Assembly: GCA_025336685.1 (NCBI GenBank)
Contig: GCA_025336685.1_4717.1
Strand: one strand, 5' to 3'
Source of the DNA: Escherichia coli
GTDB taxonomy: Bacteria; Pseudomonadota; Gammaproteobacteria; Enterobacterales; Enterobacteriaceae
Length of the DNA: 64,000 bases
Of the stretch, positions 14,258 through 64,000 are shown in pieces. The notes below the pieces were generated by a model. It did not search any database and was not told where the DNA came from. It saw only the letters and a list, made by a program, of their open reading frames with translations. Each line of letters begins with the position of its first letter. Positions within the stretch are counted from its first letter, which is position 1. The position numbers and the translations under genes are program-made.

Positions 14258-15669
14258 CTTCAGTTTAATTTGGTCGAACGTATTCCAATTTCAATCCATG
14301 CCAATCACCGCCTTTACTAATAGCGGTACTTATCGTAGTCGGATGCACTTTATGTTCTTCAGCAAGGGCGAATCTATCAGGATAGACTTTATGTGTACCA
14401 TCCTCAAACACCACCTTTACTGGGAACCTTTGTAATCCACCAGTTTTTGGTCTAGGCTCTTTAGGAATATATTTACATTCGTTCACATCGCCAGGATAAT
14501 TCCTTGTCCACCATGCTTTCCAACCGTTTCTGGAAAACATCTTATCTCCATGACATAAGCTATGACTTAATGTCGCATAGCTCACTCCCACCATTGTTGC
14601 CGCCATTACGGTACTTTCCATGTGATACTTGTCTCCATCGGGCGATATTAAAACCAACCCGCCGTAAATAACATACGACTTACCGGCATCTTCGGATGTG
14701 AAACCGACAAATTCCATTCCGTGGGTAGCCGCATCGTAATATTTCATCAACGGCCATTGTCGTGTAGTACGGAACCATTTTGAAATCTGGGTGTGTGGGA
14801 TACCGTAACACTTAGCCGCATCGCGCATACTGTAATGTTCGGTTATCTCGCCAGTTCTCAAATCCTTTATCCATACTGTTTTAGCTTTCCAGTTCAAGCC
14901 CGTACGATAGGCATGGTACGTATTTTGGGATTGACTCGTCCATTCAAGATTATCCAAGCGGTTGTTATCTTTAACTCCGTCAAGATGGTTACCTACTAAC
15001 ATTGATCCCTCAGGCAGCATAGGTTTTTCACGAAAGGTGGATAAAACAACATGATGAGCTGCTATATCTCTACCTTCATGTCTGACCCTTACATATCCTA
15101 ATACGTTAGTTTTTCCTACTTCCTCTCCAGTATAGGCATCTATAATGACACCCTCCACAGAAGCGGCAAGTCCGGGATAATCTTTACAATGGTAAAATCC
15201 TGGGAATTTTGTCTCTCTAAGTTTCATCTTCTCTCCGCTATCGGCCAACAGAGAGAAAACGTTCCTCGGAGGCCGACGTTTTCAAATTAAACTACGTTAT
15301 CGACTATATCTTCATCCTCATTGCGAGGAGTCTCCCGTTTGGGTCTGTGTTTAACAGAGCCTACTCTACTCGACATCGCGTCTTTCGATAGTCTGTGAGC
15401 ACACATCTTAACGAACATTCGTGGACTCCTAAACAGGTGAACATTCTTGTTAAGATGCTTCGCTGCGGGTTATTCCCGTCCTACCTCTTTTACCATACCC
15501 AGTTCATTACGCTGGCCCTCATCTATGTCGCCACGATGAGTTGGTGTGTAGTCCGATTACAGAAACTTCCCGTCAATTAGAGAGTTTTAACTATGTTCCT
15601 GTTACCAGAAACCCGACTCCGATGATATCAATAAATCAACGTAAGTTATTGATTTAATTGAAGAAACTG
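14258..15669 (-). mobile_element. group I intron (about 1.4 kb) with HNH endonuclease ORF in its 3' part, interrupting the beta-prime-like gene
   Basis: Minus-strand core elements: P/Q-like GGACGGGAATAACCCGCAGCG (plus 15461-15482), R-like GCTCACAGACTATCG (plus 15386-15399), S-like AAGATATAGTCG (plus 15301-15312). The 5' exon ends in U, the intron ends in G, and splicing yields a perfect NADFDGD. Confidence 0.75.
14265..15248 (-). CDS. intron-encoded HNH homing endonuclease
   Basis: HNH motif HHVVLSTF...VGNHLDGVKDNNRLDNLEWTSQSQN plus helix-turn-helix-like repeats (YGIPHTQISKWF, MVGVSYATLSHSL); sits inside the intron; TTG start with an in-frame ATG 7 codons downstream. Confidence 0.85.
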   Translation of the reverse strand: MADSGEKMKLRETKFPGFYHCKDYPGLAASVEGVIIDAYTGEEVGKTNVLGYVRVRHEGRDIAAHHVVLSTFREKPMLPEGSMLVGNHLDGVKDNNRLDNLEWTSQSQNTYHAYRTGLNWKAKTVWIKDLRTGEITEHYSMRDAAKCYGIPHTQISKWFRTTRQWPLMKYYDAATHGMEFVGFTSEDAGKSYVIYGGLVLISPDGDKYHMESTVMAATMVGVSYATLSHSLCHGDKMFSRNGWKAWWTRNYPGDVNECKYIPKEPRPKTGGLQRFPVKVVFEDGTHKVYPDRFALAEEHKVHPTTISTAISKGGDWHGLKLEYVRPN

Positions 15670-17017: not shown

Positions 17018-18913
17018 TTAGAACAGGTTGAATGCCCCACCCATGTTGTTACCGCCAACATTCGGACGATCGCTACGTGCATAGATGTTGCCGGAGATGT
17101 TACCCAGACCACGAGCACGTGCTGCTGTGTTACCACGAACAGCGGTACCTGCCAGATGCTGGATGTTCTCAGGACGGATGGTGAAGCCAGCTTCGGCAGC
17201 CGCTTCAATCAATGCCGCAAGCGCATTCGGTTCGAAATCGTAACGCATTGCCCAACCGGTTTGTTCCCAGCTACCAGACAGAACGCGATCGATGATTTCG
17301 TGACGAGCAACAACACGCTGAGACATCGACATATCGGTACGGTCGAAGCTGTCTTCCCAAGCTTCTACGGTATCCGGGTTAGTGATGTTCATCATGTACA
17401 GATCGTCCATATCACGAATATCGTGACGGTGGCCATCCTGGTGGTTGTAGTGACCCAGCGGGATACGGTTACCGGTAGCGTACACTAACGGCTGGCCGTA
17501 TTGATATTTCTTGCTGAAGCAACCCAGGGTGGTATCATCGAATGCACGATAGAGTGCTTTATAGCCTTCGGAGATTTCTTGAACTTTACCGTCAACGTTG
17601 CCCGTAAAGATCTTCTCAGCTGCAGGGATCATACGCAGCAACCAGCTATATTCACCTTCTTCCGGTACATCGATAGAAATCAGCAGAGACGGATACAGTA
17701 CCTGTTGCAGGAACTTGTAAATCTGCTCGTTGGTTTGAGTAGACAGATCCAGCGGTGCGGTAACTTCCGGATCCAGTACCATTGCCAGAGCACCCGGGTT
17801 ATGAGGACCGATGCCACGAGCAGCGTTGCTGATTAAAGACTGTGCCCACGCCATACCGCTGTTCAGCGTAGCGATGGTACCAATCAGACCTAACACGAAA
17901 GTGTTCGGAGTGAACGCATCCAGCTCCAGCGGGTAAGCGCTGGTCATCACGTAACGCGGCTGGTATTGTACAGTCGGCGGTACCGGATAACCGTTAACCA
18001 GAACAGGACCTTGGTTGAAGGTCGGGTTCTGCGGGCTGTAGGTCAGGTCAATGTAACCAGTGGTTGCGACCAGGCGCTGTTGACTATCGTAATCGCTCAT
18101 CGCTTGACGGATACGGTTAGAGATAGTTACAGTGATGTCAGAACGTACTGGGTTACCGACGATATCGCTGTCCTGCATACCGCTGGTGTTGTACTGAACG
18201 CTGCTGATCGGCTGATCGCTTGCCATCATGCCCAGGTTGAACTGCGGCAGGCCCAGTTTATCGCCGAGACGGATTTCGATCGCGGTTTGGATTGCGTTAT
18301 CTGCAGCAGACAACAGGGTGGTTGCCAGATGTGCAGATTCAGCGGTGATTTCATTGGTCACCACAGCCAGACCGGCGATACGAACAGTACCATTAGCCTT
18401 ACCACCAATAGCCGCATACATTGCCGCCATGACTTCGTTGATGAACGTGCCGTTCAGGTTATCAACCCAGGTACGTGGTACCAGAATGTTACCATGCGGA
18501 CCTTGTTCTTCACGACGCGGCAGCGGAGCCAAACCGGCAACCAGCGGAAGCACATAACCGAAGAAGTGGTTATGGTCACCAACTTTTGCACCGCTCATAA
18601 CAACCAGGGTCGGATACGGTACACTGTACTGGTTAGGATCGACGGTCACCATGATGAAGTCGTCTTTGAATCCTTTATCTTCCAGTTCTTTTTCCATCAG
18701 ACGGCGGAGATTCAGTACCTGCTCGGAGCCAGTATTACGGCTAATACGACGGCTCAGTGTACGGTTGATCGTACGCATCGTATGAGTTACTTTAGGCTGG
18801 CCAGCAAAATCTGCAGCGGTTTCCAGCGCCTCATCAGCACGTTGTGCGGTGCGGGTTTCAGCTGCACGAATTTCTACATTATCGTTACCGTTATTACGTA
18901 CGTCTAAGCCCAT
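17018..18913 (-). CDS. chmA: candidate phage nucleus shell protein (chimallin-like), 631 aa; alternative: major virion protein
   Basis: Size typical of chimallin; stand-alone gene bracketed by a TATATTAC promoter (73 nt upstream) and a strong hairpin; flexible N-terminal region and G/N-rich C-terminal tail ending ...GGNNMGGAFNLF; PhuZ present in the same genome. No direct sequence confirmation. Confidence 0.4.
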   Translation of the reverse strand: MGLDVRNNGNDNVEIRAAETRTAQRADEALETAADFAGQPKVTHTMRTINRTLSRRISRNTGSEQVLNLRRLMEKELEDKGFKDDFIMVTVDPNQYSVPYPTLVVMSGAKVGDHNHFFGYVLPLVAGLAPLPRREEQGPHGNILVPRTWVDNLNGTFINEVMAAMYAAIGGKANGTVRIAGLAVVTNEITAESAHLATTLLSAADNAIQTAIEIRLGDKLGLPQFNLGMMASDQPISSVQYNTSGMQDSDIVGNPVRSDITVTISNRIRQAMSDYDSQQRLVATTGYIDLTYSPQNPTFNQGPVLVNGYPVPPTVQYQPRYVMTSAYPLELDAFTPNTFVLGLIGTIATLNSGMAWAQSLISNAARGIGPHNPGALAMVLDPEVTAPLDLSTQTNEQIYKFLQQVLYPSLLISIDVPEEGEYSWLLRMIPAAEKIFTGNVDGKVQEISEGYKALYRAFDDTTLGCFSKKYQYGQPLVYATGNRIPLGHYNHQDGHRHDIRDMDDLYMMNITNPDTVEAWEDSFDRTDMSMSQRVVARHEIIDRVLSGSWEQTGWAMRYDFEPNALAALIEAAAEAGFTIRPENIQHLAGTAVRGNTAARARGLGNISGNIYARSDRPNVGGNNMGGAFNLF

Positions 18914-26644: not shown

Positions 26645-26826
26645 AGCGCATCTCCATTCACTTGAACTTTTTGGTTCGGTGTTAGAAAAGCAAGAAACCG
26701 CTGTTCTTCGCTTCCGCTACAGTTTCGTCACCAACTTTCGGTGCCTGTTGACGCGCGTTACGATGTTCGATGTAACGTTTCGCTTCGTCAGCGATTTGTT
26801 TGATAATACCCTAAACGATCCAGTAC

Positions 26827-27660
26827 TTAAAACAAACGACGTCGCTTCTGAATCAGGCTGCTTTCAGGTACAAAACCGTCACAGCTGTAAATAGCGTTAA
26901 CACCCATGACTTTAGTCGCGTCTTTCGGATAAAGCGTACAGAAAGCAATAGGACTATCGTTCTCTTTCGTCCAATCGTATCCCACGAACGTATTCAGTTC
27001 GGTGATCGTTGGTTCCAAACCGGTAACACGTGGATGGTTTAAGAAGTTTTCCAGGTCGGCGCTGTCAAGACGACGGTTCTCACCAGAAAACAGAACACAA
27101 AGCTGGCTAATAACAACCTGCACGTCCAGGTTGACATCCTGCTCCGATTTCCCATTTTCGCCATTCATGTGATAGCTAACAATCACCGGACGTTTCAATC
27201 CTTCTGCAGCTGCCATCAGTCCTTTAAAGGTACGATCGGCGTTGATCGTTTGACGCTCATCATCGAACGAGGCAACGATGCAACACACCACACGTTCACC
27301 GCGTTCCAGCAGGTTAGCAACCAACGCAGGACCTGCAACAGAACCTGAACCACCGCTCAGACTAAAGACCACGATATTAAATTTACCAGGCGTATGCTTA
27401 TTGAGAATGCCTGGGATTTGTGAACAGATCAGTTCAGCGTTCTCATCACGCTTCTTACCAGAACCGTCTAACTCACGACCCGCCGCATCTTTAAAGATGT
27501 AGATATGATCGTCGTCCAGTGCGCTATCGCGTAGGTTAGCCCGGCTGGTATCAACATACGTCATGCTGTGTAATCCTTTCGCGACTTCGCCTTCAAACGC
27601 TGAGCCGATTTCGCCACCACAACCACCAACAGCCCAAATATGTACTTGGTTCTCTTGCAT
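26827..27660 (-). CDS. phuZ: PhuZ-like phage tubulin/FtsZ-family GTPase
   Basis: N-terminal glycine loop IWAVGGCGGEIG and tubulin signature FSLSGGSGSVAGPALV (cf. PhuZ SLGGGSGSV / tubulin GGGTGSG); size and spacing fit the tubulin fold. Confidence 0.8.
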   Translation of the reverse strand: MQENQVHIWAVGGCGGEIGSAFEGEVAKGLHSMTYVDTSRANLRDSALDDDHIYIFKDAAGRELDGSGKKRDENAELICSQIPGILNKHTPGKFNIVVFSLSGGSGSVAGPALVANLLERGERVVCCIVASFDDERQTINADRTFKGLMAAAEGLKRPVIVSYHMNGENGKSEQDVNLDVQVVISQLCVLFSGENRRLDSADLENFLNHPRVTGLEPTITELNTFVGYDWTKENDSPIAFCTLYPKDATKVMGVNAIYSCDGFVPESSLIQKRRRLF

Positions 27661-27724
27661 GTGAACTCCTAATTTAATATGTATTTAACGTACAATGAAT
27701 CTTTCTTTGCTAAAGGGGTGACCC

Positions 27725-28567: not shown

Positions 28568-29175
28568 TTAACGACAGCTTCCTCCCTCGGTGTTTTCGAG
28601 GGAGGTATTTGCCGTTTGAACACTTTCAGCACGTTCGCAAAATCAGCAGCAATAATACAGGCCGAGGCTGATAGCTTATTGCTGAAAATGAGATCGTCCG
28701 GTAAACAATCGAACTGAATACCATATTGCGTCTTTGTCTCGTCAACGATCAGTGACGGTGTCGATCCTGTCTTCGCAATATCGGTGATGTACAAACGTAA
28801 AAATAATTCACCGTCTTCGCTATCAATAAAACGATAAGCGTTACCGGAAAACGCAGCATACGGCGTAACGATAAATTGAACACGATCGTCGGTCGGGTGG
28901 ATTTGTAACCAACGTTCGACATCGTTATTGCTCACATTCTGCATACGTAACACCGTGAATGCGAACAGTGTATCGTGATGCTTGGAATAATGCAGCACAT
29001 ACGCCGCATCTTTCTTTCTGTGAATCCCTTCAATATATTCTATTGTCGTGTAGCCTGATTTATATAGCTTTACTTGCGGTTTATCACTCATCATAACAGC
29101 CCTTCCCGTTTCATCGCAGCGCGCATACTTGCGTAAAGCGCATTCTTCATCGCACCTGGACGCAACGGATAACAA
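28558..29175 (-). CDS. hypothetical protein (boundaries uncertain)
   Basis: ORF whose 3' end overlaps the plus-strand terminator hairpin and whose 5' end overlaps 29091-29390; the real gene is probably shorter. Confidence 0.35.
   Translation of the reverse strand: MLSVASRCDEECALRKYARCDETGRAVMMSDKPQVKLYKSGYTTIEYIEGIHRKKDAAYVLHYSKHHDTLFAFTVLRMQNVSNNDVERWLQIHPTDDRVQFIVTPYAAFSGNAYRFIDSEDGELFLRLYITDIAKTGSTPSLIVDETKTQYGIQFDCLPDDLIFSNKLSASACIIAADFANVLKVFKRQIPPSKTPREEAVVNQK
28581..28605 (+). terminator. rho-independent-like terminator CCTCCCTCG-loop-GAGGGAGG then TATTTGCCGTTTG
   Basis: Hairpin plus T-rich tail 14 nt after the 27725-28567 stop. Confidence 0.55.
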
Positions 29176-29790: not shown

Positions 29791-30615
29791 TTAACTATCG
29801 CTTTCTGATGTATCAACGTAGTTGAAAATACGATCCCGTAAACACTCATAACGAGGCAACGCACTAAGAATGATCATCTTCAACTGCATCGCGATCGATA
29901 CGCGTTCTTCATCCGATGCATCGTCTCCCCATTTACCCGGCTTAACCTGAATAGGTTCACGCGGATCCTGCGGAAATATGAAACTTAACAACAGATAATC
30001 CGTACGGAACTCCCACACTTCTCGGCCGTCGTTATCGGTTTCTTTACGCAACGTGAAGAGTTGACGTTCGGTGGTTGGATCCAGCATCAGCGGTCGACCA
30101 CGAACGATCTCCAGTTTACGTGGACTGACGAACGTCGTACGTTCAGGAAGGTATTTTTCAACATCATCCGTATCCAACAAGAACAAAATGATGTCGTCGA
30201 AATACTTCGGTGCGTACGTGTGTATCGGTTCGCCATCGCTATACGAAGAGATCTCTTGGAGTATTGGCGTCTTAGACGAAAAGTTCTGGCATGAACCACG
30301 AGTGATCGGTAAGGTGTTCCATTGATGTTCCGTAGACAATTCGACAGGCACCAACGGATAATCATCGATGAAGACCGCGCACGTTGTGCTAATGGGTATT
30401 CTTCCATCATTGTTCGGTTCAAAAACCAGACGTATCTTACCGGTAATTAACGCCATCTCATCTGGCATTAAGTGGCTCGCTGACCGGGCAAGTCTGAAAC
30501 CGCTCGCCTGTTTATAAGGTTCGGGTTTATAGCCACGGACAATAAGAGAGACATCCGCAAGTTCAACGCTCACGAACGCATCTTTGATGTCTTCATTGTT
30601 CGTCGTTAACGTCAT
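29791..30615 (-). CDS. hypothetical protein (274 aa)
   Basis: ORF; a TTTATTACG motif lies about 39 nt upstream on the minus strand. Confidence 0.5.
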   Translation of the reverse strand: MTLTTNNEDIKDAFVSVELADVSLIVRGYKPEPYKQASGFRLARSASHLMPDEMALITGKIRLVFEPNNDGRIPISTTCAVFIDDYPLVPVELSTEHQWNTLPITRGSCQNFSSKTPILQEISSYSDGEPIHTYAPKYFDDIILFLLDTDDVEKYLPERTTFVSPRKLEIVRGRPLMLDPTTERQLFTLRKETDNDGREVWEFRTDYLLLSFIFPQDPREPIQVKPGKWGDDASDEERVSIAMQLKMIILSALPRYECLRDRIFNYVDTSESDS

Positions 30616-31630
30616 TGTTCATTTTCTCCATTGCTACAAATCGTTCAAGTTCACGTAATAAACGCTCTTTTAAAGCAGGATCAACTTCCGGAGCATGTTT
30701 ATCACGATACCATTCGGTCCCGTTGTATTGCAGGCTAACATGCCATGTTCCTAACGGGCTTTCCTCTGCAGCGGCGATGAAATTCTTAACGCCGGTTTTG
30801 GTAGGATACTCCATGATAGGAACAGCCTGCTTCGGATCCATTACGGTAAGATCCTGGAAGTTATAATCCAGGAGTGTTAACGCGCGTTTGTCGCGTAACA
30901 GTAATCCGCAATCCAAGATAGTGAAATCAATACCCCAGAAACGTAACTTACCTCCAACCCCAACAGGGGTATGGCCACGATAAACCGCGAGATAAATCTC
31001 ACCTTTATCGGTTTCTTTGTTGTATCCTGCAATGAAAGCAGCCGTAATTAATGGCTGGTGTCCTTTCGCTAAGAAGACAGGGTGGTTATGATACAACCAG
31101 TCACTACGAATCAGATCGGTAACCTGACCTAAACGTGCTGTTGGTACCATCACCGATCCCAGAGTTTCATCAACAGGAACCTGGTAATATTCAAACAGAA
31201 CACCATCGATTTCTTCGGTAGCGTAAGGCGTACGTGTGGGATCGTTAAGAAGTTTACGGAGTTTTGTGTCGATTTCGTTAACACGGCTACCCTGTTCTTT
31301 CTCGCGGCTACCGATAACAAAAGCAACAAGATTACGTACGCTAACAAAAACATCATCTTTCTCGGTGTCGCTGAGATCAGCCTCATCCGGCATCGTTGTC
31401 CAATGTAACGGACCTTCAACGACCTTAAGCCATCTATCTTCACGTCCCGGATAAATAAAAGGCTTATGTACAGGAACACTGGTATGCTGAACCCGTAATA
31501 ACAGATTACATAACGATGGCAATGTTTTCTCCAGAGGAGGAACAATACCTGATGTAACGGAAATAACGTAACGATTAAGAACAAGAGAAGCTGAATAGGT
31601 GATGTTATCTAATCCTGGTAATTGATCCAT
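30593..31630 (-). CDS. hypothetical protein (345 aa)
   Basis: ORF preceded by a 300-bp AT-rich intergenic region. Confidence 0.5.
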   Translation of the reverse strand: MDQLPGLDNITYSASLVLNRYVISVTSGIVPPLEKTLPSLCNLLLRVQHTSVPVHKPFIYPGREDRWLKVVEGPLHWTTMPDEADLSDTEKDDVFVSVRNLVAFVIGSREKEQGSRVNEIDTKLRKLLNDPTRTPYATEEIDGVLFEYYQVPVDETLGSVMVPTARLGQVTDLIRSDWLYHNHPVFLAKGHQPLITAAFIAGYNKETDKGEIYLAVYRGHTPVGVGGKLRFWGIDFTILDCGLLLRDKRALTLLDYNFQDLTVMDPKQAVPIMEYPTKTGVKNFIAAAEESPLGTWHVSLQYNGTEWYRDKHAPEVDPALKERLLRELERFVAMEKMNNDVNDEQ

Positions 31631-53031: not shown

Positions 53032-54255
53032 TTATTTAGCGTCGTTAAAGTAAATATCAACAGCTCGTTCCGTTGCGTAGAGGAGACCAAGATTCACAGT
53101 CCCAACCACTTCCGGTGAACCGATGATACGGTTAGCGATACTGGTGCCACTGAAGATAGCATCAAGGGTGTGCCCGTCTTCGGTTTTGTTCACACCATGA
53201 CCCACGGAAGAGACAACGGATTTCGCTTGTGCTGCGAAGGTACCCTTATCACCCATCCCCGCACCAAGGTCGTAACGCATGAAAATACGGATGGCGATCT
53301 GGTTCTCGCCTAACGGATTACCGTCTATTCTCACGTTACTGTTGTTGATACGCCCCGTCGTTGCTTCATTGAGTTTCAGTTCCTTGACGCGTTTAGCTCG
53401 CGCTTTATCTGCGTCACCGACGAGCGCCGCCATGGTTTCACTCATATCCTCAATCTGAGCGCGGTACAGCACATCGATCTGTACAACTTCACCATGAACG
53501 TCAGCACGTGGGTTATACTGACTCATACGACGTAATGCTTCAACGGCTTCCTGACTCTCATCACTCAGATCAGTTGCGATCGGTTCTTCCAGTGTTGCAA
53601 GAATAGTTCGAGGTTCAACATGATCGCCGATTTTTACGAGACCACGAATGTTGAGATGGGCGTCAACAATGAGCGTGCGGCTCTTAATCGATGGTGTTAC
53701 GAGACGATCGGCAAGATTGTCGAAGATATACGAACTGTCCTCGTGAGTCTCTGGAATATCCAGAATACCGACAAGAGACAGAACACCTGCGCGCCAAACA
53801 ACCTGACCTGGGTTCCACCAGTCGCGTTTAAAATAAAGACGATGGAAAACTACCACATCTTGATCCTTAACGCGATCCCCAACTTTATAATCGGTAATGA
53901 GGTCATGCGGATAATACTTACCTGGTCCTTTCCCGATTATCGTACCGAGTTGGAAAACCTCTTCTCCTAACTCTGGATCATCGTATTGTATCGTAAGCGC
54001 AGTTTTGGTGACCTTCTTCACAACACCATCGCCTTGGGCGGCAGCTGCGAAGAGTTTACCAACGCGATGCGCGATAACGGTCTCGCCACCAGTACGCCAT
54101 GGTTGTACATCGTAACCTTCAGCAGCAATCATGCGGTTGTGTTGGATGCCTATAAATACGAGACGCTTTGGCGGAATCCAGCAAAATACATTTACTGTGC
54201 GTCCGGATTGTTCAGATAAGGTCGTTAATCTTATCCCGGAGGCGATGATAGGCAC
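53032..54255 (-). CDS. RNA polymerase beta-like subunit, middle segment (probable 3' exon)
   Basis: [23 protein letters not shown] resembles beta [40 protein letters not shown]...[13 protein letters not shown] resembles GDKMAGRHGNKGVIS...GVPSRMNIGQILE. The listed start is GTG, and the frame stays open a few codons upstream, consistent with an exon. Confidence 0.6.
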   Translation of the reverse strand: [407 protein letters not shown]

Positions 54256-54483
54256 ACCGCCTCCCGCTTACGCTCTCACGTAAGAGCAGACTATATCACA
54301 TCTCGTCTTAGGCTTGTTTTCACAAGTCAAACGGTGCTTCTTCAGCACCTCAACGAGAGTTCACTTCTTCCCAGCGCATCCAGCGCCATTCTCTTATCCA
54401 AGGAGAATGCCTCACTCGAGGGGTACAGGGGGATGAATCCCTTAGTCGTTGAACCGTCACCCTAGAACGTTTCACAACGATCC

Positions 54484-55695
54484 TTAGGCGATTGGCTGCG
54501 GATTACCCTTGGCCTGCGGACCACGAACTTTTGTCGCGGTCAACTCTTCATTTTTAAAGCCTGCTTTACGAGCAATACGTCTCGCTTCTCGCACGTCTAA
54601 CGTTTCCGTTTCCGCTTTGGCTGAAGGCAGCATTGGGCGTCCTCGCAATTCAATGAATCTCGTCCATACGTCACCGTATAAACGGACCCGCTCTTTGTAA
54701 ACAGAATAGTAAATATAACGTTTTCCGTCAGGGAATTTAGTCATCCCATCGGACTTCAAACGGTAATTGAGTAACGTAGTAGATATACCCATTTCTTCGG
54801 CGCAATCAACGGCTGAAAGGTACAATAGCGGTACATCATTTTCAGGAATGACGACAATAGCACGTTTGTTGGTTGTCTTCTCCAACTCCAGGATACTATC
54901 TTCGACTTCCCGCCACGGCGTCTCATCAGTAACCCATTTAACTTGATAACAGCCATTAACGACAGGTTGGTTCTTGTCGTTAACGTACATCGACGCAGTG
55001 GGTAACTTAACACCAATGTGATTAGCGAATTCAGTCAATGATTCGAAAAGATGAATCTCTTTTGTTATCGTTGACCTTGCAATCACGCCCTTACTCCCCG
55101 TATCCGTCAACGTTGCTAACTCGTATTTGGTAGGAATACGCCACGGTTCATCGCCGTAATCTTTGCGGTACTGCTTACGTTCAGGAAACGCTCGCTGTTT
55201 ACCTCTATAGACACGATGATGAATGAAGTCGATATTCACACCAAGATCGCGTGCCGCTTCCGTCATGGATGGATATCTAGTTACAACACCGGTGTCAACA
55301 TCACGAACCTGAATAGGTTTACCGTAAGCAGCAATAGAACGTTTACGCATGTTCATAATGCGGGCATGCTGATTGTTCTCTTTCTGTGTAACCCATTCAA
55401 GATTGTCATTCTCTGTGTTACCGTCGGGATCAAGGTAGTTATTAAGTCTGTTGCCGTCCTTGTGGTTCACATGGAGCAAATGCGCATCATCGATGTTACG
55501 GAACGTTAACATTAGAAGTCTATGCATGGAACGGTAAACCAATGTTCCATCGTGACCTCGAAACGAATAACGATAATACCCAGCAATGATGATGGGCAAA
55601 TATTCAAACTTCGATTCCTTGTTACGCAATGTTCCATCTATGGATATCTCCAGGAACGGGAATTCCGGTACGGTCTTAAATACCTTCTCACTCAT
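54484..55695 (-). CDS. HNH homing endonuclease (intron-associated)
   Basis: HNH motif HRLLMLTF...HVNHKDGNRLNNYLDPDGNTENDNLEWVTQKENNQHA; helix-turn-helix-like repeats; located between the two beta-like segments. Confidence 0.85.
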   Translation of the reverse strand: MSEKVFKTVPEFPFLEISIDGTLRNKESKFEYLPIIIAGYYRYSFRGHDGTLVYRSMHRLLMLTFRNIDDAHLLHVNHKDGNRLNNYLDPDGNTENDNLEWVTQKENNQHARIMNMRKRSIAAYGKPIQVRDVDTGVVTRYPSMTEAARDLGVNIDFIHHRVYRGKQRAFPERKQYRKDYGDEPWRIPTKYELATLTDTGSKGVIARSTITKEIHLFESLTEFANHIGVKLPTASMYVNDKNQPVVNGCYQVKWVTDETPWREVEDSILELEKTTNKRAIVVIPENDVPLLYLSAVDCAEEMGISTTLLNYRLKSDGMTKFPDGKRYIYYSVYKERVRLYGDVWTRFIELRGRPMLPSAKAETETLDVREARRIARKAGFKNEELTATKVRGPQAKGNPQPIA

Positions 55696-55735
55696 TGACT
55701 ATATTCCTCTTGTGCAGTGATATTAACTACACTTT

Positions 55736-55750
55736 CGTAATATAGCCTTA
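55736..55750 (-). promoter_or_regulatory. phage promoter, minus-strand attaaggCTATATTACG, inside the putative intron upstream of the HNH ORF
   Basis: Plus-strand gtaatata at 55737-55744, about 42 nt upstream of the HNH start. Confidence 0.55.
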
Positions 55751-55770
55751 ATTCTGTTTACATTGAAGCC

Positions 55771-58700
55771 TTAATCATCTCTATCAGCAGCAGGTACTGC
55801 AAGTGCTGATGTACTCATTATTGACGAGCTACCATCCGTTTTCTCGTCGTAGGGTTTCGTTTCACCGTATACAGACACAATGTTTGCGTTAGGTGCGAGG
55901 TAAGCAGAAATACCTACATCCCCACTATCCTTCGTACCTTCGGATACAACACCAATGTCCGACTTGTCGTATTCACGATCGCGTGCGCGTCGAAGCGATG
56001 TCTTTGAACGCCCCCCGATACCGGTCATCGTTGCTTCTTCACCCTGCTTGATATCCAGCATCGGGTTGGTTTCATCGATCACGATGGAAGCGCTGTCGTC
56101 GAGAATTTGGTTCCAGACACTCACTGGACTGATTGAGATTTTCTGGCGGTTTCCTTGACTGCTGTTCTCGTTTTGACGAATAGCGCTAACCAGGTCCTTA
56201 TACACCAGTTCGGCGAACTTATCGTACGTTTTAAAACGTTGGTAGTTCACATCGTTCGTGTTAGGTGCCCAGTCATCCAGAAGCAGTTCAACAGCACGCA
56301 GTAACAACATGGCGAAATCGGTAGGTTCTCCCATGTTCTGTAGCAACGTACGGCTCACCGGATCGATGAAAAGACGCTCCATGAGTTCAAGTTCGCGTAA
56401 ATGGCGAACCTTAAGTCCAGCACCATCGACAACGTTAAAATAGATATCTCGATTGTCAAAAGCACCGCGAGCGTAACCGATGTAGTTACGGTACTCGTTG
56501 AACCCACCCAACAGCAACGTCGTCATGCGATCGTCTTTACTGAAGATCAAACTTTCGTCGTCAAAGCTCACCGCGAATTCATCGGGTGCTAGACCCATAC
56601 GAGAGCCGCGAGGTACCGTACGATAGTTCGCTTTAAGGTGTTCTAATAACGGGGTAAGCCCACCCAGATAACTTAGAACAACACCGACCGGAATACGTAC
56701 ACCCATGAATTCAAGATCGGCGGCTTCGATCGGCATCTTAGCCGCATTGATACCGAAGAAATCAGGGAACGTCCCTACAGGTGTTGGTGTTTGTCCTGAC
56801 TGACAGATATAGAGCTGATTGCGTTCATCGATTGCTAAGAATTCACCCAACGTGTTACGTGCAAACGTCAGGAGCCCTTCGGCTAACTGTTCGTTGAACC
56901 GATCTTCCCCAATGAACTCCGGCAATGTCTTTATATCGAGACGTATATCCCAATCAGCGAATTGGATTTGGGTATAGTTGCGTGCAAGCACTGCGAAGTA
57001 ATACGGGACTTTGACAGCCGGATCAAAGACGTTACCGCGTTTTAACGTGGTTAAGGGTGAGGACTTATCGTAATACATCGCCGTAAGTTGACGTGTTAGC
57101 CAACGACCCGCATTATTAACGACGCGCTCTGAACGTTTAACAAACACCTTACCGTAGGCGGTACTCAATGCAACTTCGGATGACGATACCTTTCTAATAG
57201 GTTTATCGACGCGTTGTTTACGCATCCGGTACTTGATGCCGTTAACGACATAAATGCCGTCCTTACGAACCTTCGGTAACATCACCGGGAACGTGGTCGG
57301 GACACCGCCTACGGGGGCCAGTTTAATCGTGATGACTTGATAATCCCCCATCACGTCAACAACATCTTCGACTTTATATCCCGTGACTGGGTAACCTGCC
57401 TGCTGTACCGCAACAACAGCAGCTGCGATGTCCTTTTGCATTACGTGTTCGACGTAATGTTTATCCCACACCGCAAGCGTCGATTTACATAAGCTCTTAT
57501 CGACGATAACGTCCGCTTCCGGCATAACCTTTGCGGGAGCTAATTTCGCGGCTTTTGGTTTAACTTCAACATACTCAGCAAGTGTTAATCCAGAACCGTC
57601 GGGTGCTTCGATTTCATGGATGGCGTCAGCGTTACGCATCGCTGCTTTATATTGGACGCCACTTAACTGCCCCGCATCCGCCAGATCGCCCGCGCGTACC
57701 AACACCGCATCCGATAACGACTGAATATACTCACCGTGTGTTTTTGGTAACGTTGTCGCGTCAAAGACATCAACCTTTTCTTCTTCGGTATCGTCAGTAA
57801 CGACTTCGAAGAGATCGTCGGTAATGTCCTGATCTTCATCAGGTTGGAAATCCGGTTGTACTTCTACCCCGGGTACTTCACGGACATCTTCGAACGTGCG
57901 TTCTACAACGGCGTTCCATGCATCAGCGTCATCGTCTTCATCCGACCCACCGACCAACTCCGCTTCTAACTCATCGGGGTCAAGAACAGTGGCCAGATCC
58001 TCACCGTTAGGAAGCACGACGTCACGATCGTCGTACTCCGCATCCGGGTTGTCGGTAAGAATATCTCGCTCTTGACGAAGAACCTGTTCCTCTTCTTGTT
58101 TCTGTTCTTCTTCATTCGCGCTCTGCGACCACAAACGTGTTACCGCCATCATCCAACGACGTTGGAAGGTTTCAAGTGTCGTTTTGTCGAGTTCTTCCCC
58201 TTCCTTTACAAGCCCGGTACGCCATTCCTCCAGCAGGCCGAGATTCAACGTAAAGAAGTACACACCGTCTGTAAATACAACGTTAAGCTTATCCAGCGTG
58301 GCCCTGTCTAACGAAGCCATCGTGCTGTTCTCACGATCGGTTCCCAACCAGCGGAAGAAGTCAAAGAACGACAGCTCCTCCGGTGTGGCGAAATTCATGA
58401 GGTTGTTACGGGTCGGTGCCTGTTGTGTGGTACGCATCAACGAAATCTTCGGCAATGTTGACGGTAAACGGAACAACAAAAAGTGTTGACGATCGCTTTG
58501 TTGTGCGATTTCGTTGGCTTTCGACCAAATTGTTTTACGTACGTTGAACCATTCATCATACCAACGGGTGAGCGTTGGACGATAGATGTACATGTGGTTA
58601 AGATGCGCGTAGTTAGCAACGATCTGAGCGTTGATGTTTTTCTCCACCGTACTTAGATCGGTAACCAAACGAAAACGACGATGCGATGCACGATAATCCA

Positions 58701-58980
58701 ATTTCGCTCGTGGAAGTTGGAATCGTTGATCGCGTCGAGGTGCGCCTTGTTTGGTTGCGAGATCATCAGCAAACGAAATCCATAGTTGAGCATTTTCTTT
58801 ACTCAGCATGTATTCGTTTTCTGGAGGACCTATCAATGAAGGATCCGTTGCGGTGTAATGATAGACAGCATAACGCGGCAGCTGCAATAGCTGCACTAAA
58901 CGTAATCTTGGTGATAGTAGCTCTTGGTAGCGTCTGACACCGAACTGTCGGTAGTAATCAAGGTATTTAAGTTTTGCCAT
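55771..58980 (-). CDS. RNA polymerase beta-like subunit, N-terminal segment (probable 5' exon), 1069 aa with acidic insertion
   Basis: C-terminus SEGTKDSGDVGISAYLAPNANIVSVYGETKPYDEKTDG aligns with beta region D ([37 protein letters not shown]); contains a D/E-rich insert. Confidence 0.65.
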   Translation of the reverse strand: MAKLKYLDYYRQFGVRRYQELLSPRLRLVQLLQLPRYAVYHYTATDPSLIGPPENEYMLSKENAQLWISFADDLATKQGAPRRDQRFQLPRAKLDYRASHRRFRLVTDLSTVEKNINAQIVANYAHLNHMYIYRPTLTRWYDEWFNVRKTIWSKANEIAQQSDRQHFLLFRLPSTLPKISLMRTTQQAPTRNNLMNFATPEELSFFDFFRWLGTDRENSTMASLDRATLDKLNVVFTDGVYFFTLNLGLLEEWRTGLVKEGEELDKTTLETFQRRWMMAVTRLWSQSANEEEQKQEEEQVLRQERDILTDNPDAEYDDRDVVLPNGEDLATVLDPDELEAELVGGSDEDDDADAWNAVVERTFEDVREVPGVEVQPDFQPDEDQDITDDLFEVVTDDTEEEKVDVFDATTLPKTHGEYIQSLSDAVLVRAGDLADAGQLSGVQYKAAMRNADAIHEIEAPDGSGLTLAEYVEVKPKAAKLAPAKVMPEADVIVDKSLCKSTLAVWDKHYVEHVMQKDIAAAVVAVQQAGYPVTGYKVEDVVDVMGDYQVITIKLAPVGGVPTTFPVMLPKVRKDGIYVVNGIKYRMRKQRVDKPIRKVSSSEVALSTAYGKVFVKRSERVVNNAGRWLTRQLTAMYYDKSSPLTTLKRGNVFDPAVKVPYYFAVLARNYTQIQFADWDIRLDIKTLPEFIGEDRFNEQLAEGLLTFARNTLGEFLAIDERNQLYICQSGQTPTPVGTFPDFFGINAAKMPIEAADLEFMGVRIPVGVVLSYLGGLTPLLEHLKANYRTVPRGSRMGLAPDEFAVSFDDESLIFSKDDRMTTLLLGGFNEYRNYIGYARGAFDNRDIYFNVVDGAGLKVRHLRELELMERLFIDPVSRTLLQNMGEPTDFAMLLLRAVELLLDDWAPNTNDVNYQRFKTYDKFAELVYKDLVSAIRQNENSSQGNRQKISISPVSVWNQILDDSASIVIDETNPMLDIKQGEEATMTGIGGRSKTSLRRARDREYDKSDIGVVSEGTKDSGDVGISAYLAPNANIVSVYGETKPYDEKTDGSSSIMSTSALAVPAADRDD

Positions 58981-58983
58981 GGG

Positions 58984-60672
58984 TTAGGCTCCACGAGGTC
59001 CCGTTAAGTTGCGTAATAGGAACGCAACCGTATCGTAACCAATATCAATGTTGAATTTATTTTTACCACTTACCCAGAAAGCTCGCTTCTTGTGCGAGTT
59101 GGTAATTTCGTCAATGGCTTCCATGGAATAAAGAACGTTAACCGAGACCGTATCACCATCAAAGTCCCCGCCAAGTCCGGCGAGGTATGGGGCAGGGACA
59201 ATAGTCGTTTCTACGAACGAAGCATTAGGTAACCAGTCAGGGTATTCCCATGCGATAAATCGTTCATCCGTTATTGGTTCCCAGTTACTATCCAGTTCGG
59301 TTTTCGGTTTTGCGGCGACGGTTGTACGCGCATAACAGGTTAACGGGATAACGGATTGCATACCCGATACCGGATAACGTGTTACCATTGCAGCCAGGTT
59401 ATTCCAGTACTTATATCCGGCGATGTACACTAATTCGGTATACGTGATGGGGTGAACATCCGCACCAGGTTTATTCAACATTTCTGGGGGTAATTCACTC
59501 ATACCACGGAACAGTCGAAACGAATCATTGTTCACATAGACGAGGCAAAGATAACGTCCATTAACCATGATAGGTTCGTTACGCACGCCTGGATCGCTTA
59601 AGGTGTTCAATAAACGTTCTATTCCGTCCCATGTCGTAAAGTCATCGATGGTGTCTGGATCAAGCGTGACGCGTTCACGTTCCATCGTTTCGGTATCGAT
59701 AAGTTCAACTTCTGTAACATCACGGACAAATATTTCCTGCAAAATCCCCGTACGTAACGCATGTTGCGTCACGGGTAGGGCGGCTTTGCTCATCTGGTAT
59801 AACCCTAACTGAACTGCAGTACAGGAAGGCTGGTTGGGCGATCCTAGTACCTCCGTTGTGGGGTTAATTGCCGAAATAACGTTACGGGTTGAGTTCCAAA
59901 CACGACGTGAGCCGAACTTCCCTTGAAAGATCCCTTTCTTACCTTGGAACATATCCAACAACAAAGCGTAGATATCGTTAAATGTTCTCTGTAAGCTCCA
60001 GCGTTGGCCGTCGTAAACGGGATCGGAATAATCTTTTAATCCATCGGGGACGGTGTTAGAAATTGCAAGGAAACGACGATACAACTCCGTGATTTCTTGC
60101 TCGCTTTCATACCCGCCTTCTTTTACTTCTATTTCACGTAAGCCCGCAGGTAAAACCAGTAAGTGACGGGTCATCGCTTTGAACATGTTCTCTTCGACAA
60201 CTTTAATTCGTAGCTCTCGTTGAGCTGAACCCGTTGAAACGAACTTGATATCCGCGACGTGTTGTGCAAAGAACCCGTACCCTGTCTGTCCTGTTAACGC
60301 ATCAGACGCAACGAAATCGCGTTGTTCAGGATCCCACCGAGCGTACGCCTTCCCCGACATGATATCACCATAGAGGTGTTTTAATCGAATGAGGCGGTCG
60401 TAAATGACAGGATGCAGGATTTCAACTTTGCATTCAATCACCGCAAATCGACGGTCTCGATCTTCACTACCTGCACTACCAAAGATGGTGTAAGAATAGA
60501 AACCATCATCGTGGAAATTACCGGTGCTTGGGTCACGAATGCTCATGCTCGTGATCTTGGGGAGAAAACGTAACTGTTGTTTATCGAGGTGTAAAATACT
60601 AATATTAAACGGCTCTCTGACTTTAGCCATGGAGACACTCCTCTTTACCACCACCGGCTGCGGCGGTATCAT
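58984..60672 (-). CDS. RNA polymerase beta-prime-like subunit fragment with catalytic DFDGD motif
   Basis: GGDFDGDTVSVN matches NADFDGDQMAVH; GKKGIFQGKFGSRRVWNSTRNVISAINP matches [27 protein letters not shown]. No zinc finger in this copy. Confidence 0.75.
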   Translation of the reverse strand: MIPPQPVVVKRSVSMAKVREPFNISILHLDKQQLRFLPKITSMSIRDPSTGNFHDDGFYSYTIFGSAGSEDRDRRFAVIECKVEILHPVIYDRLIRLKHLYGDIMSGKAYARWDPEQRDFVASDALTGQTGYGFFAQHVADIKFVSTGSAQRELRIKVVEENMFKAMTRHLLVLPAGLREIEVKEGGYESEQEITELYRRFLAISNTVPDGLKDYSDPVYDGQRWSLQRTFNDIYALLLDMFQGKKGIFQGKFGSRRVWNSTRNVISAINPTTEVLGSPNQPSCTAVQLGLYQMSKAALPVTQHALRTGILQEIFVRDVTEVELIDTETMERERVTLDPDTIDDFTTWDGIERLLNTLSDPGVRNEPIMVNGRYLCLVYVNNDSFRLFRGMSELPPEMLNKPGADVHPITYTELVYIAGYKYWNNLAAMVTRYPVSGMQSVIPLTCYARTTVAAKPKTELDSNWEPITDERFIAWEYPDWLPNASFVETTIVPAPYLAGLGGDFDGDTVSVNVLYSMEAIDEITNSHKKRAFWVSGKNKFNIDIGYDTVAFLLRNLTGPRGA

Positions 60673-60875
60673 CTGAACACACGAGAGACGTAATGGGTGA
60701 TGGCGTCACCCATCGCTTCCTTGCTTGAGGCGAGGAAGTTATTAGGTTACGTACCTGCCTGATTTTATCAGGTGGGCGATGTGTGAAGTTACGCTTCAAC
60801 ATTATCAATGCCGAAGGTAAACTTCGTGCATCACGTTCCAACGTAACATGGGAACGTATCGAACTGGAGGTATAC

Positions 60876-63479
60876 ATGGTAGATAAAACCCGTGTTGAGG
60901 GTGATGATAATTGGGATAACTGGGATGATGACTTCTCCCTGGATCTCGATTTTAACGAACCCAAAGACGATCGTAAACCGATAACACGCTTTGCGGTAGG
61001 AGCGGTTAAAGGTGCCGCTGAGGATCTTACTTCCTACGAAAGAATGAAGGAGATCGCCAGAAACGCATTGCCTAAGGGCTATAGCGACGGTATGGATCTT
61101 ATCGATTCCGCCGTCGGATCCACGAAGGAACTATACAATGAAGCCGTTCGTGATGTTCTTCCTAAGGTCCAAAGCTCAAAACGGTTAGCTGCACAACTGA
61201 CCAAGAAATACCGTGCGAGCATGCCCGATTTCTCGAAGAAAATTCTTGAGCAATGGGAGCGAGAAGCCAAGGAAGAAGACGAACGTAAACAAGCTGAAGA
61301 AACCCTTCGTCAACGCATGGCGAGCGCGGGGGACGATGAGGTCGCCCGCAAGGTTGCCGAGGCGTTAGGTGAATCAGCAAACCAAAGCGCGGATCAGTTT
61401 GCCGAGCAGCAAGCAAAAGAAAGTATCCGTGACGATATCGCTGACAAACGGTACGCTGTAACCAACAAACAAATGAGTGCGATGCAAGAAGGCGTCGCCA
61501 AGATGGTTGGTTTCAACAATGAATTCGCTGCGCGCTACATGCGTAAAAGCCTGGAACTGAAATATCGTTCCTTAGCGATTCAACGCGCAAGTTTCGATCA
61601 GCATAAAAAGTTAGCCGAAGTCTATATCGGTTTATTACAAAACATCCAGAAGAATACGGCTTTACCTGATGCGGCTAAAGCAAAAATGTCGGAAGAATTC
61701 CGCCGTAGCGCGTACCAACGTTTCTTTGGTAATGCGTTAGATGCGATGAGTTCTTTCGAGAACCGTTTCTTTGCCGATGTTAAGAAAAACCTTGCCACCA
61801 ACGCATTAGGTGCTTTAAAAGGCGTCGTGTCTGGCGCAAACGATGCGTTATACGGTTTAAACGAAGCACGTGACTCGATGTCCATGATGGATGGGATGGG
61901 GTCAGAAGGCGATATTAAGGAAATGCAAGGAAAGATGTTGGGTCAGTTCATTGGCTCAACTGTCGCACCATGGATGGCTAATAAAGGCAGGATGGCGTTA
62001 CGCGATTTAGCAAAACGTCACCCCAATGCTAAATTCGCTAGCGCGTTAAAAGCCGTGGATCAAGGTGGTGAAGCAGCCGCTTACACAACGCGCAATATCG
62101 GTAAACTGCTCCAGGAAGATATTCGTAAGAACGAATTCAATCTTAGCGATCCGTTTTACAAGCAATTGTTACGCGGCGCAGGGCGTTGGGCGTTCAACAT
62201 GGACAGCGGACGTAACTTCCGCGTGATGAACGACTCCGCTGAAACATTGGCTGAGCAAACGTCTTTCGACGGTTTAACCTACCGCAGCATCAACGAGGTT
62301 ATTCCCGGCTTTCTTGCGCGCATTCTGAAAAGCAGTGAGGGTATCCGCACTGGAAACAGCGATCCTGACTACGAGGTCTATGACGGCATCAGCGGGCAAT
62401 TCGTGTCTCAGCGCACGCGTGAACAAAGCGTCAACGACACGCTGTTTAACAAACGTTCGTTTGGTTATTACGCAAGCCGTTTCAATGAGGTTATCTCGGT
62501 CATCGATCCCGATAAACAATTATCGGAAAAAGCCAGAAAGGCGCTGGCTAAGCAGTTGGCACGAGATAGCGACGCAAATATCGCATTCGACCCGGCCCGT
62601 TTTACGGATGAAAGCAACTTCGATCGTAGTATTGACCGCGACGCTATTAAGGAACTTTCCACGTACTTTCGTGATCGTTACGGTATTCGTGACGATATCA
62701 ACGATAAGGGCGAACGTCATCAGGTCGTTGGAAACCGCGGGCAATATTACACGGAACGTAACCGAGCCGATCTTCGTTACGGAAATCTGAAATCTTTACA
62801 ACCGGATATCCAGCGTAACCTTAACCTGCTGAAACGTACTGGTGACGTCCAATATCTGGAACGGATTGGGATTGTAACGAGAAATAGCGACGGAAGCTAC
62901 TCGGTTAATCACGATCGGTATTTCTCTGAAATTGATCAATACATCGACCGACCGGAGTACGCCGAACGTAATGATGTTAATACGCGATTAACCGCTCAGG
63001 AAACAAGAGCGCTGGCGCTGGGTTATCGTGACGCAAAACCATCAGTTGATGACGTGCAAAATGCGGGTCTGCCGAACATCGATCGTAAGGCTGTTGGAAC
63101 AGTAACCGTTGATGAAAACATCGGCTACGATAAATGGTGGAACGACACGGGTGTTATCACCACATCGCTTGAAGAACAGAATCGAGCGTGGCAAGAGCTT
63201 TATCTCGAGGCCTTGTCTGAAGCATCCGAACAACGTGTTGAAATGCTTGCGTTACTGAAAGCCATTTCTGAGAAAGACTGGTCTAATAACGTTTCACTGG
63301 ATGGCGAAGATGTACCTGAAGGTACGGCACCCATTTCATTTATCGATCGTGCCAAACAAAAACTCGGCGCACGCAACCTCTTTAAAGGCGGTCGTAATCT
63401 CCTCTGGAAAGGAATTAAAAATACCGCACGGTTGGGTGTTAAAGGTGCACGCTGGGAGTGCAGAACACACACTAGGTAG
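60876..63479 (+). CDS. hypothetical large protein (about 868 aa), coiled-coil / charged-rich
   Basis: Listed ORF begins at 60783, but the in-frame ATG at 60876 has a GGAGG RBS (ggaggtatacATG); long K/E/A/R-rich helical-looking regions; no catalytic motif. Confidence 0.5.
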   Translation: MVDKTRVEGDDNWDNWDDDFSLDLDFNEPKDDRKPITRFAVGAVKGAAEDLTSYERMKEIARNALPKGYSDGMDLIDSAVGSTKELYNEAVRDVLPKVQSSKRLAAQLTKKYRASMPDFSKKILEQWEREAKEEDERKQAEETLRQRMASAGDDEVARKVAEALGESANQSADQFAEQQAKESIRDDIADKRYAVTNKQMSAMQEGVAKMVGFNNEFAARYMRKSLELKYRSLAIQRASFDQHKKLAEVYIGLLQNIQKNTALPDAAKAKMSEEFRRSAYQRFFGNALDAMSSFENRFFADVKKNLATNALGALKGVVSGANDALYGLNEARDSMSMMDGMGSEGDIKEMQGKMLGQFIGSTVAPWMANKGRMALRDLAKRHPNAKFASALKAVDQGGEAAAYTTRNIGKLLQEDIRKNEFNLSDPFYKQLLRGAGRWAFNMDSGRNFRVMNDSAETLAEQTSFDGLTYRSINEVIPGFLARILKSSEGIRTGNSDPDYEVYDGISGQFVSQRTREQSVNDTLFNKRSFGYYASRFNEVISVIDPDKQLSEKARKALAKQLARDSDANIAFDPARFTDESNFDRSIDRDAIKELSTYFRDRYGIRDDINDKGERHQVVGNRGQYYTERNRADLRYGNLKSLQPDIQRNLNLLKRTGDVQYLERIGIVTRNSDGSYSVNHDRYFSEIDQYIDRPEYAERNDVNTRLTAQETRALALGYRDAKPSVDDVQNAGLPNIDRKAVGTVTVDENIGYDKWWNDTGVITTSLEEQNRAWQELYLEALSEASEQRVEMLALLKAISEKDWSNNVSLDGEDVPEGTAPISFIDRAKQKLGARNLFKGGRNLLWKGIKNTARLGVKGARWECRTHTR

Positions 63480-64000
63480 TTTGGTAAATTCCGGTCGACG
63501 CATTATCAACTTCAACCGATTCGTGTTCGGCGCATTATCCAAGGTTGATCAAGTTCCGTTTGACATTTATGTTAAAAGTCAATACGCATACTGGCTGCCA
63601 AACTTCGTCGGTTATACTTCGACGAAGCGACAGGAAAAACCATAAAACGAATGAAGGATATCAAAGGCCCACTCGTTGATGCTGATGGAAACATCGTAAT
63701 CAGCAGCAACGAGGATATCGAGAAAAGGGTTGGTCACTCGCGCCGGTCGTGCCTTTGAAATTCAGGACTTAAAGCGTGGGCACATGAAGGTCTTAATGGA
63801 ATCACGACAGTCTTATTCTGCCACGGATGTTAAAACGCGGTGCGGTTGAGATCTACAAACAGCTCGACAAAACGCCCGACGTTTACGTCAAGGGAGAATC
63901 AACACCTCGTCTATTATCCATGGTGTTAGCGGCAGGTGGGTATTTCCGTCGCTCCGACGGACAAACCGTCAAAAATCTTGAAGACATCGATGGTGATGTT

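Follow-up and report, generated by a model that had tools for sequence, protein, structure and literature searches.

PhuZ is the tubulin of nucleus-forming jumbo phages, and the closest described relative of the locus studied here is that of Escherichia phage vB_EcoM_Goslar (gp201, GenBank MK327938; gp234, YP_009820885.1, RefSeq; PDB 9pm9/9pmk). In Goslar, PhuZ filaments form a vortex that makes the phage nucleus rotate but has no part in its positioning, and the hydrolysis-defective, dominant-negative mutant PhuZ(D202A) stops the rotation with the position of the nucleus unchanged (doi 10.1101/2021.10.25.465362, Birkholz et al.; PMC12908238). A literature search for the paper behind structure 9pm9 gave nothing relevant. 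In contrast, the PhuZ proteins of phages 201phi2-1 (gp59; 3r4v, 3rb8, 3j5v) and phiKZ (gp39; 3zbp, 3zbq) build a bipolar spindle that centres the nucleus. In these two proteins, helix H11 and the C-terminal tail constitute the main longitudinal contact and the lateral contacts of a three-stranded filament, and point mutations in the terminal 'knuckle' or its deletion abolish assembly in vitro and in vivo (PMC7950403; doi 10.1101/311498). For the 201phi2-1 protein, deletion or mutation of the tail abolishes assembly (PMC7950403). TubZ of the Clostridium botulinum phage c-st (3v3t) is likewise a phage tubulin with a C-terminal tail, and its engineered tail-less structure (4xcq) is a laboratory analogue of a truncated subunit. 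However, it belongs to a DNA-segregation system with other biology and is distant (13-14% identity, TM ~0.63).

The normal product of a Goslar-type phuZ is expected to be a 326-residue protein with the tubulin/FtsZ fold, whose N-terminal domain would bind GTP through loops T1-T6. The T7 loop of one subunit (D199/D202) would complete the active site of the next, and H11 together with the terminal tail, which ends in D/N-x-G followed by three hydrophobic residues, would contact the neighbouring subunit and supply most of the longitudinal and lateral contacts of the filament. GTP-driven polymerisation and hydrolysis through the T7 aspartates would then give dynamic filaments. In infected E. coli, the filaments of Goslar form a vortex around the chimallin-shelled nucleus, push on the membrane and make the nucleus rotate.

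The phuZ locus and its family

The DNA that we analysed (the window, 64,000 nucleotides) is, judged by its sequence, part of a Goslarvirus genome (family Chimalliviridae), because it is 95.6% identical to Goslar DNA around phuZ and because ∼55 Goslar genes have colinear single-frame orthologs in it (chimallin, RNA polymerase subunits, DNA polymerase, terminase and tail sheath among them). The ortholog of the chimallin ChmA is located at 17021-18913 with 96.7% identity to Goslar, and ChmA, the RNAP beta-type subunits, DNA polymerase, TerL and the tail sheath follow one another in Goslar order, as in a nucleus-forming jumbo phage genome. This agrees with a recent report that assemblies of enterobacterial isolates contain, in hundreds of cases, Goslarviruses as whole contigs (PMC12768965). 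Full-length Goslar-type PhuZ proteins of 326 residues (the P0001 cluster) were found on 237-248-kb contigs of assemblies labelled E. coli O157, Shigella sonnei, Shigella flexneri and Salmonella enterica, in agreement with the published Goslarviruses hidden in isolate assemblies.

The phuZ locus aligns with positions 180574-182076 of the Goslar record NC_048170 (megablast, 95.6% DNA identity), with the same neighbouring genes in the same order. Its features are the following.

27666..27670 (-): AGGAG ribosome-binding site, 5 nt 5' of the ATG, taken straight from the sequence
26682..27660 (-): entire phuZ locus, colinear with the 981-nt phuZ of Goslar (gp234/gp201) and here broken by three indels
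26827..27660 (-): ORF as read, the feature of the initial annotation; 277 codons, ATG to TAA
26851..27660 (-): codons 1-270, in frame with Goslar PhuZ; GTPase domain, H7 and most of the C-terminal domain (strands S7-S9), from alignment to 9pm9
27604..27630 (-): T1 loop VGGCGGEIG, residues 11-19; G12, G13 and G15 near-invariant
27448..27468 (-): T3 gamma-phosphate-sensing loop DGSGKKR, residues 65-71; G66, G68 and R71 invariant in 23 sequences
27328..27363 (-): T4 tubulin signature region SLSGGSGSVAGP, residues 100-111; G103, G104 and V108 invariant; S105, G106 and S107 near-invariant
27055..27066 (-): T7 loop D199-S-A-D202, including D202, the residue mutated in Goslar PhuZ(D202A)
26827..26850 (-): out-of-frame codons 271-277 (QKRRRLF) and new stop TAA; relatives encode (R)EATSFVL from the same DNA
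26811..26850 (-): frameshift patch with three indels, from alignments to Goslar, two IMG/VR genomes and one ENA contig; all private to the window
26682..26810 (-): 3' part of phuZ left stranded, coding for GIIKQIADEAKRYIEHRNARQQAPKVGDETVAEAKNSGFLLF (helix H11 and C-terminal tail) and followed by the stop, in another frame than the ORF and with no start codon of its own

The initial annotation had placed a 277-residue ORF on the minus strand at 26827-27660 and identified it as a PhuZ-type phage tubulin from two GTP-binding motifs, VGGCGGEIG and SLSGGSGSVAGP. The ORF lies exactly there, both motifs are present (residues 11-19 and 100-111) and the family call was right. In phmmer searches of the PDB, the ORF matched Goslar PhuZ over query residues 2-272 (9pm9, E 1.7e-179), and the comparison with the two Pseudomonas-phage proteins that had been proposed as a check was also positive (phiKZ gp39, 3zbp, E 1.3e-28; 201phi2-1 gp59, 3r4v/3rb8/3j5v, E about 2.5e-14). 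PHROG 4733 'tubulin PhuZ' matched at E 3.4e-63. In phage genomes, tblastn returned 173 records, all of jumbo phages, with >60% identity in Goslar only. Residues 1-270 are ∼97% identical to Goslar PhuZ.

Neither of two Pfam models reached its threshold. PF00091 (Tubulin) scored 30.7 bits for the ORF and 30.3 bits for a repaired full-length protein (see later in the text), both below the cut-off of 33, and the gathering score of PF22334 (TubZ_C_2) was reached by neither the truncated nor the repaired protein. The latter model does not extend to the Goslar clade and is uninformative for it: with a cut-off of 27, two distant homologues scored 57.6 (P0013) and 29.9 bits (P0017), and a 64%-identical homologue (P0002) scored 17.3.

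In an alignment of 23 sequences, D37, T38, S39, N42, G66, G68, R71, G103, G104, V108, N140, Y163, N166, D199, D202 and G262 were invariant, and all of them are in the ORF; the residues of the T1, T3 and T4 loops, the T5 asparagine (N140) and the T7 Asp-x-x-Asp are invariant or near-invariant, and those of T1, T3, T4 and T7, including the catalytic D202, are shared with Goslar. An AlphaFold2 model of a 326-residue relative with 96% identity (P0001; pLDDT 86, pTM 0.86) had the tubulin/FtsZ architecture, with GTPase domain, H7 and C-terminal activation domain, and matched, in order, 9pm9, then 3zbq, 3zbp, 3rb8 and 3r4v, and then TubZ, CetZ and FtsZ. We infer the fold of the ORF product itself from its 97% identity over residues 1-270. 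Absence of a tubulin/FtsZ fold or of GTP-binding residues, either of which the initial annotation had named as grounds for giving up the assignment, was seen neither in the model of the relative nor in the alignment. These comparisons strongly support the ORF as an ortholog of Goslar PhuZ with its nucleotide-binding and catalytic loops intact.

The PhuZ proteins of 201phi2-1 and phiKZ share family, fold (TM 0.76-0.83 with the model of the full-length relative) and architecture, with a long H11 and an assembly-driving C-terminal tail after the tubulin core. However, they are only ∼22-30% identical to the present protein, and the extreme C-terminus encoded at this locus is ...NSGFLLF, as opposed to the strongly acidic 'knuckle' of 201phi2-1. 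The description of the product as a spindle that centres the phage nucleus was taken from the Pseudomonas-phage model and does not suit this locus, whose 97%-identical Goslar ortholog forms a rotating vortex. The gene is thus already known in the sense that the cell biology of its near-identical Goslar ortholog has been published and the structure deposited; its sole unusual feature is a frameshift, seen in one assembly.

The reading-frame break and the C-terminus

The ORF had been considered to be of the right size for PhuZ, and this did not hold. Goslar PhuZ has 326 residues, 22 homologues found among 5.8 billion proteins have 308-341, and the ORF spans only positions 1-263 of the 323-position PHROG PhuZ profile. 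DNA alignment with Goslar revealed three indels on the coding strand within 40 nt (-1, +1 and -2). The first is a 1-nt deletion inside codon 271 (window 26849/26850), the second a 1-nt insertion at 26822, 27 nt further along the coding strand, and the third the loss of 2 nt from a stretch of five G (26811/26812). The frame is lost after codon 270, and the final 55 codons of the gene are out of frame. When Goslar PhuZ was used as the tblastn query, its residues 1-284 aligned with 27660-26809, a stretch that includes the new stop and the first two indels (-1 and +1), and its residues 285-326 with 26810-26685 in a different frame. In-silico repair of the three indels restored a 326-residue protein that covers positions 1-321 of 323 in the PHROG profile and scores 232 bits, versus 215 unrepaired. 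The locus is almost certainly a Goslarvirus phuZ whose ORF has been shortened by a frameshift and whose basic end is an out-of-frame reading.

The protein does terminate in KRRRLF, as the initial annotation had correctly read from the translation (...PESSLIQKRRRLF, i.e. ...LIQKRRRLF), because the 1-nt deletion puts the EATSFVL codons out of frame. This basic end had been put forward as a C-terminal tail worth comparing with known family members; it results from the frameshift and does not represent a variant tail, the true tail sequence lying downstream out of frame. A functional shorter PhuZ, in which KRRRLF is an evolved alternative tail that mediates filament assembly differently, would be in keeping with an ORF that is intact from ATG to stop, has a good ribosome-binding site and carries a complete GTPase domain. 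We consider it very improbable: the seven end residues are the out-of-frame translation of the EATSFVL codons of four related genomes, the canonical tail is still encoded immediately downstream with synonymous changes only, none of the 22 homologues ends in this way or falls below 308 residues, and a core beta-strand of the model (E274-279) would be removed as well.

The stranded tail has 100% amino-acid identity to Goslar residues 285-326, all three of its substitutions being synonymous, and codons 1-268 differ from Goslar by 26 synonymous and 5 non-synonymous changes. The preserved tail-coding sequence is also the one observation that speaks for programmed recoding, in which ribosomes would shift across the three indels and make the full-length protein. 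However, this would require three separate shifts (+1, -1, then -1 or +2) within 40 nt, inspection of the sequence gave no recognisable slippery site at any of them, and in the relatives a single frame encodes the protein, so that the probability of recoding is close to nil. The alignments effectively exclude both a functional basic-tailed PhuZ and programmed recoding. Translation of the tail as a separate peptide was likewise rejected, there being no start codon within the tail frame.

In the numbering of the P0001 model, the ORF lacks strand E274-279, the last strand of the sheet of the C-terminal domain (S10), helix H281-305 (H11) and the terminal segment with H312-321. All 22 homologues keep the strand, the helix and the tail, and end in the conserved D/N-x-G followed by three hydrophobic residues. 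The ORF, which stops at residue 277, has no long H11 and tail; the locus would provide them only if the indels are errors, and the corresponding DNA is still present out of frame at 26682-26810. If a 277-residue protein is made, it would keep the nucleotide pocket and the surface that receives the tail of a neighbour, and the loss of its own tail and of a core strand would leave it assembly-incompetent and possibly unstable. A phage with such a protein would be expected to behave like a PhuZ-less chimallivirus.

The same 277-residue protein is present in NCBI (MCT7382273.1/WP_260974143.1; P0032 in our set), annotated as a 'hypothetical protein'; its contig (240,999 bp) belongs to the assembly of an E. 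coli isolate and appears to be the phage contig from which the window derives. The record ought to carry the name phuZ together with a flag for a frameshift or for verification, and its KRRRLF end ought not to be interpreted as a novel kind of tail. No new tail chemistry would follow whether the indels are an error or a genuine knockout.

Origin of the indels

To place the indels, the locus was compared with four genomes: Goslar, two IMG/VR Goslarvirus genomes and one ENA metagenome contig. All three phuZ indels were private to the window and the frame was intact in 4 of 4 comparison genomes, one IMG/VR genome being 97.5% identical at the DNA level over the 3.8-kb phuZ locus. The 277-residue form accounted for 1 of the 40 members read from a cluster of 111. 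Exact searches did not find the frameshift haplotype in viral, metagenome or species-representative genome contigs, and the 277-residue protein had no exact match in the contig index. The intact haplotype was found by exact search in one ENA contig and not in the species-representative genomes, and megablast of complete E. coli genomes gave no Goslar-like record.

A second private cluster of indels was detected at 63457-63815, in the tail-fibre gene orthologous to Goslar gp204, which starts at 60783 on the plus strand (60783-64000 in the window). It consists of seven indels (+1, -7, -3, +3, +1, -1 and -1), with the first in-frame stop at 63477. Read in the Goslar frame, 12 of the 18 private substitutions of this patch are synonymous, those between the indels among them, indicating that this frame was under selection until very recently. 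The two genes together carry ten coding indel events within ∼400 nt. Among the roughly 60 Goslar genes compared, coding frameshifts were confined to phuZ, the tail fibre and two gene-end changes; the latter, the only other coding changes in ∼58 kb whose length is not a multiple of three, are a 1-nt change located 20 nt from where the gp183 ortholog starts and a 4-nt change in the final codons of TerL. The remaining single-base indels relative to Goslar are intergenic, and the intergenic indel rate for this genome pair is roughly 3 per kb.

The clustering of ten indels, the involvement of a presumably essential gene and the signature of purifying selection nearby favour either an error or a very recent lesion. 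We lean towards a local error of the deposited assembly as the most likely origin, in which case the phage would make an ordinary full-length PhuZ; both the erroneous nature of the indels and a Goslar-like behaviour of the protein are our inference. Several observations weigh against an error. The rest of the assembly is clean, with ∼55 Goslar orthologs colinear in one frame; generalised sequencing noise was rejected on this ground, and a special local cause must therefore be assumed. A repeat search of the window found no second copy of either the phuZ or the tail-fibre patch, so that repeats were rejected as a cause of local misassembly. Furthermore, just 3 of the 10 indel events are homopolymer run-length changes, the kind typical of long-read errors. 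Finally, PhuZ is dispensable and has been lost repeatedly in Chimalliviridae (PMC11724907; PMC12908238), which makes a real knockout plausible.

A real frameshift, that is, a Goslarvirus lineage with a recent loss-of-function phuZ allele, has in our estimate a somewhat less than even chance. The 277-residue product could then fold its GTPase domain and bind GTP, but the tail-mediated longitudinal and lateral contacts would be gone; neither filaments nor a vortex would form, the nucleus would not rotate, and replication would be somewhat less efficient, as in the PhuZ-less chimalliviruses. Such an allele would be in accordance with the absence of coding frameshifts elsewhere in the assembly, with the 277-residue protein in the NCBI annotation and with the assembly defect of tail-deleted or tail-mutated 201phi2-1 PhuZ (PMC7950403). 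PhuZ is non-essential and sporadically lost even within genera that otherwise keep it (PMC11724907; PMC12768965), and Goslarviruses in bacterial isolate assemblies may persist in a carrier-like manner, with selection possibly relaxed (PMC12768965). However, three indels in 40 nt far exceed the neutral intergenic rate, the stranded tail shows no amino-acid change, the same odd pattern recurs in a tail-fibre gene that a spreading phage should need, and the allele is known from a single assembly with no independent copy. More specifically, and more tentatively, real indels would mean that clustered error-prone events have only just deprived a Goslarvirus, captured in the culture of an E. coli isolate, of the function of its PhuZ filaments and perhaps also of normal tail-fibre function.

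If the frameshift is genuine, the window copy would be functionally PhuZ-less, like the chimalliviruses of the Erwinia phage Asesino clade, Vibrio phage Ariel, Seoulvirus and 'Bapsvirus', and would add a further instance of sporadic loss within a genus that encodes PhuZ (PMC12768965; PMC11724907). In those phages, however, the gene is wholly absent, whereas here it is complete save for three indels and without other decay. It would then constitute a natural tail-less allele, suited to an in-genus comparison of what the vortex contributes to fitness, and a case of PhuZ loss in progress, a natural snapshot of chimalliviruses shedding their tubulin cytoskeleton that is perhaps tied to carrier-like persistence or to escape from RNA-targeting defence.

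Further differences from Goslar in the window

Beside the first phuZ indel, at 26849-26856 (-), two private substitutions turn the palindrome CGA-T-TCG of Goslar into TGA-T-TCA with the symmetry kept, which may be a coincidence or a templated (quasi-palindrome) mutation. Around 26334, the window lacks 189 bp of Goslar, and with them most of gp236, a small gene; because the closest IMG/VR relative (L010) is arranged in the same way, the gap is a real lineage difference.

Other differences concern introns and endonuclease genes. An insert of ∼1.6 kb that is absent from Goslar divides the large beta-type RNA polymerase gene, the ortholog of Goslar gp207, into two parts (55771-58980 and 53032-54255). 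This insert (54169-55787) matched no Rfam intron model at threshold and carries a 403-residue HNH-type endonuclease ORF at 54484-55695 (-), 27% identical to Goslar gp206. Conversely, the Goslar group I intron with the gp206 ORF, located between gp207 and gp205 (211754-213798 of the record), is missing from the window at 59163-59165. The two genomes therefore differ in where their RNA polymerase genes carry mobile inserts. A group I intron at 15281-15660 (-) (Rfam RF00028, 50.3 bits) is in the same place as in Goslar, and the adjoining HNH endonuclease ORF (14307-15179, -) is 29% identical to Goslar gp186, which suggests a homing-endonuclease replacement.

Two patches, 30596-31630 (-) and 28920-28981, diverge from Goslar well above the background of roughly 5%. 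The first is the gp228 ortholog, with only 83% amino-acid identity and several in-frame indels, and the second, in the gp232 ortholog, is a 60-nt stretch with differences at every third base; both look like mosaic recombination tracts.
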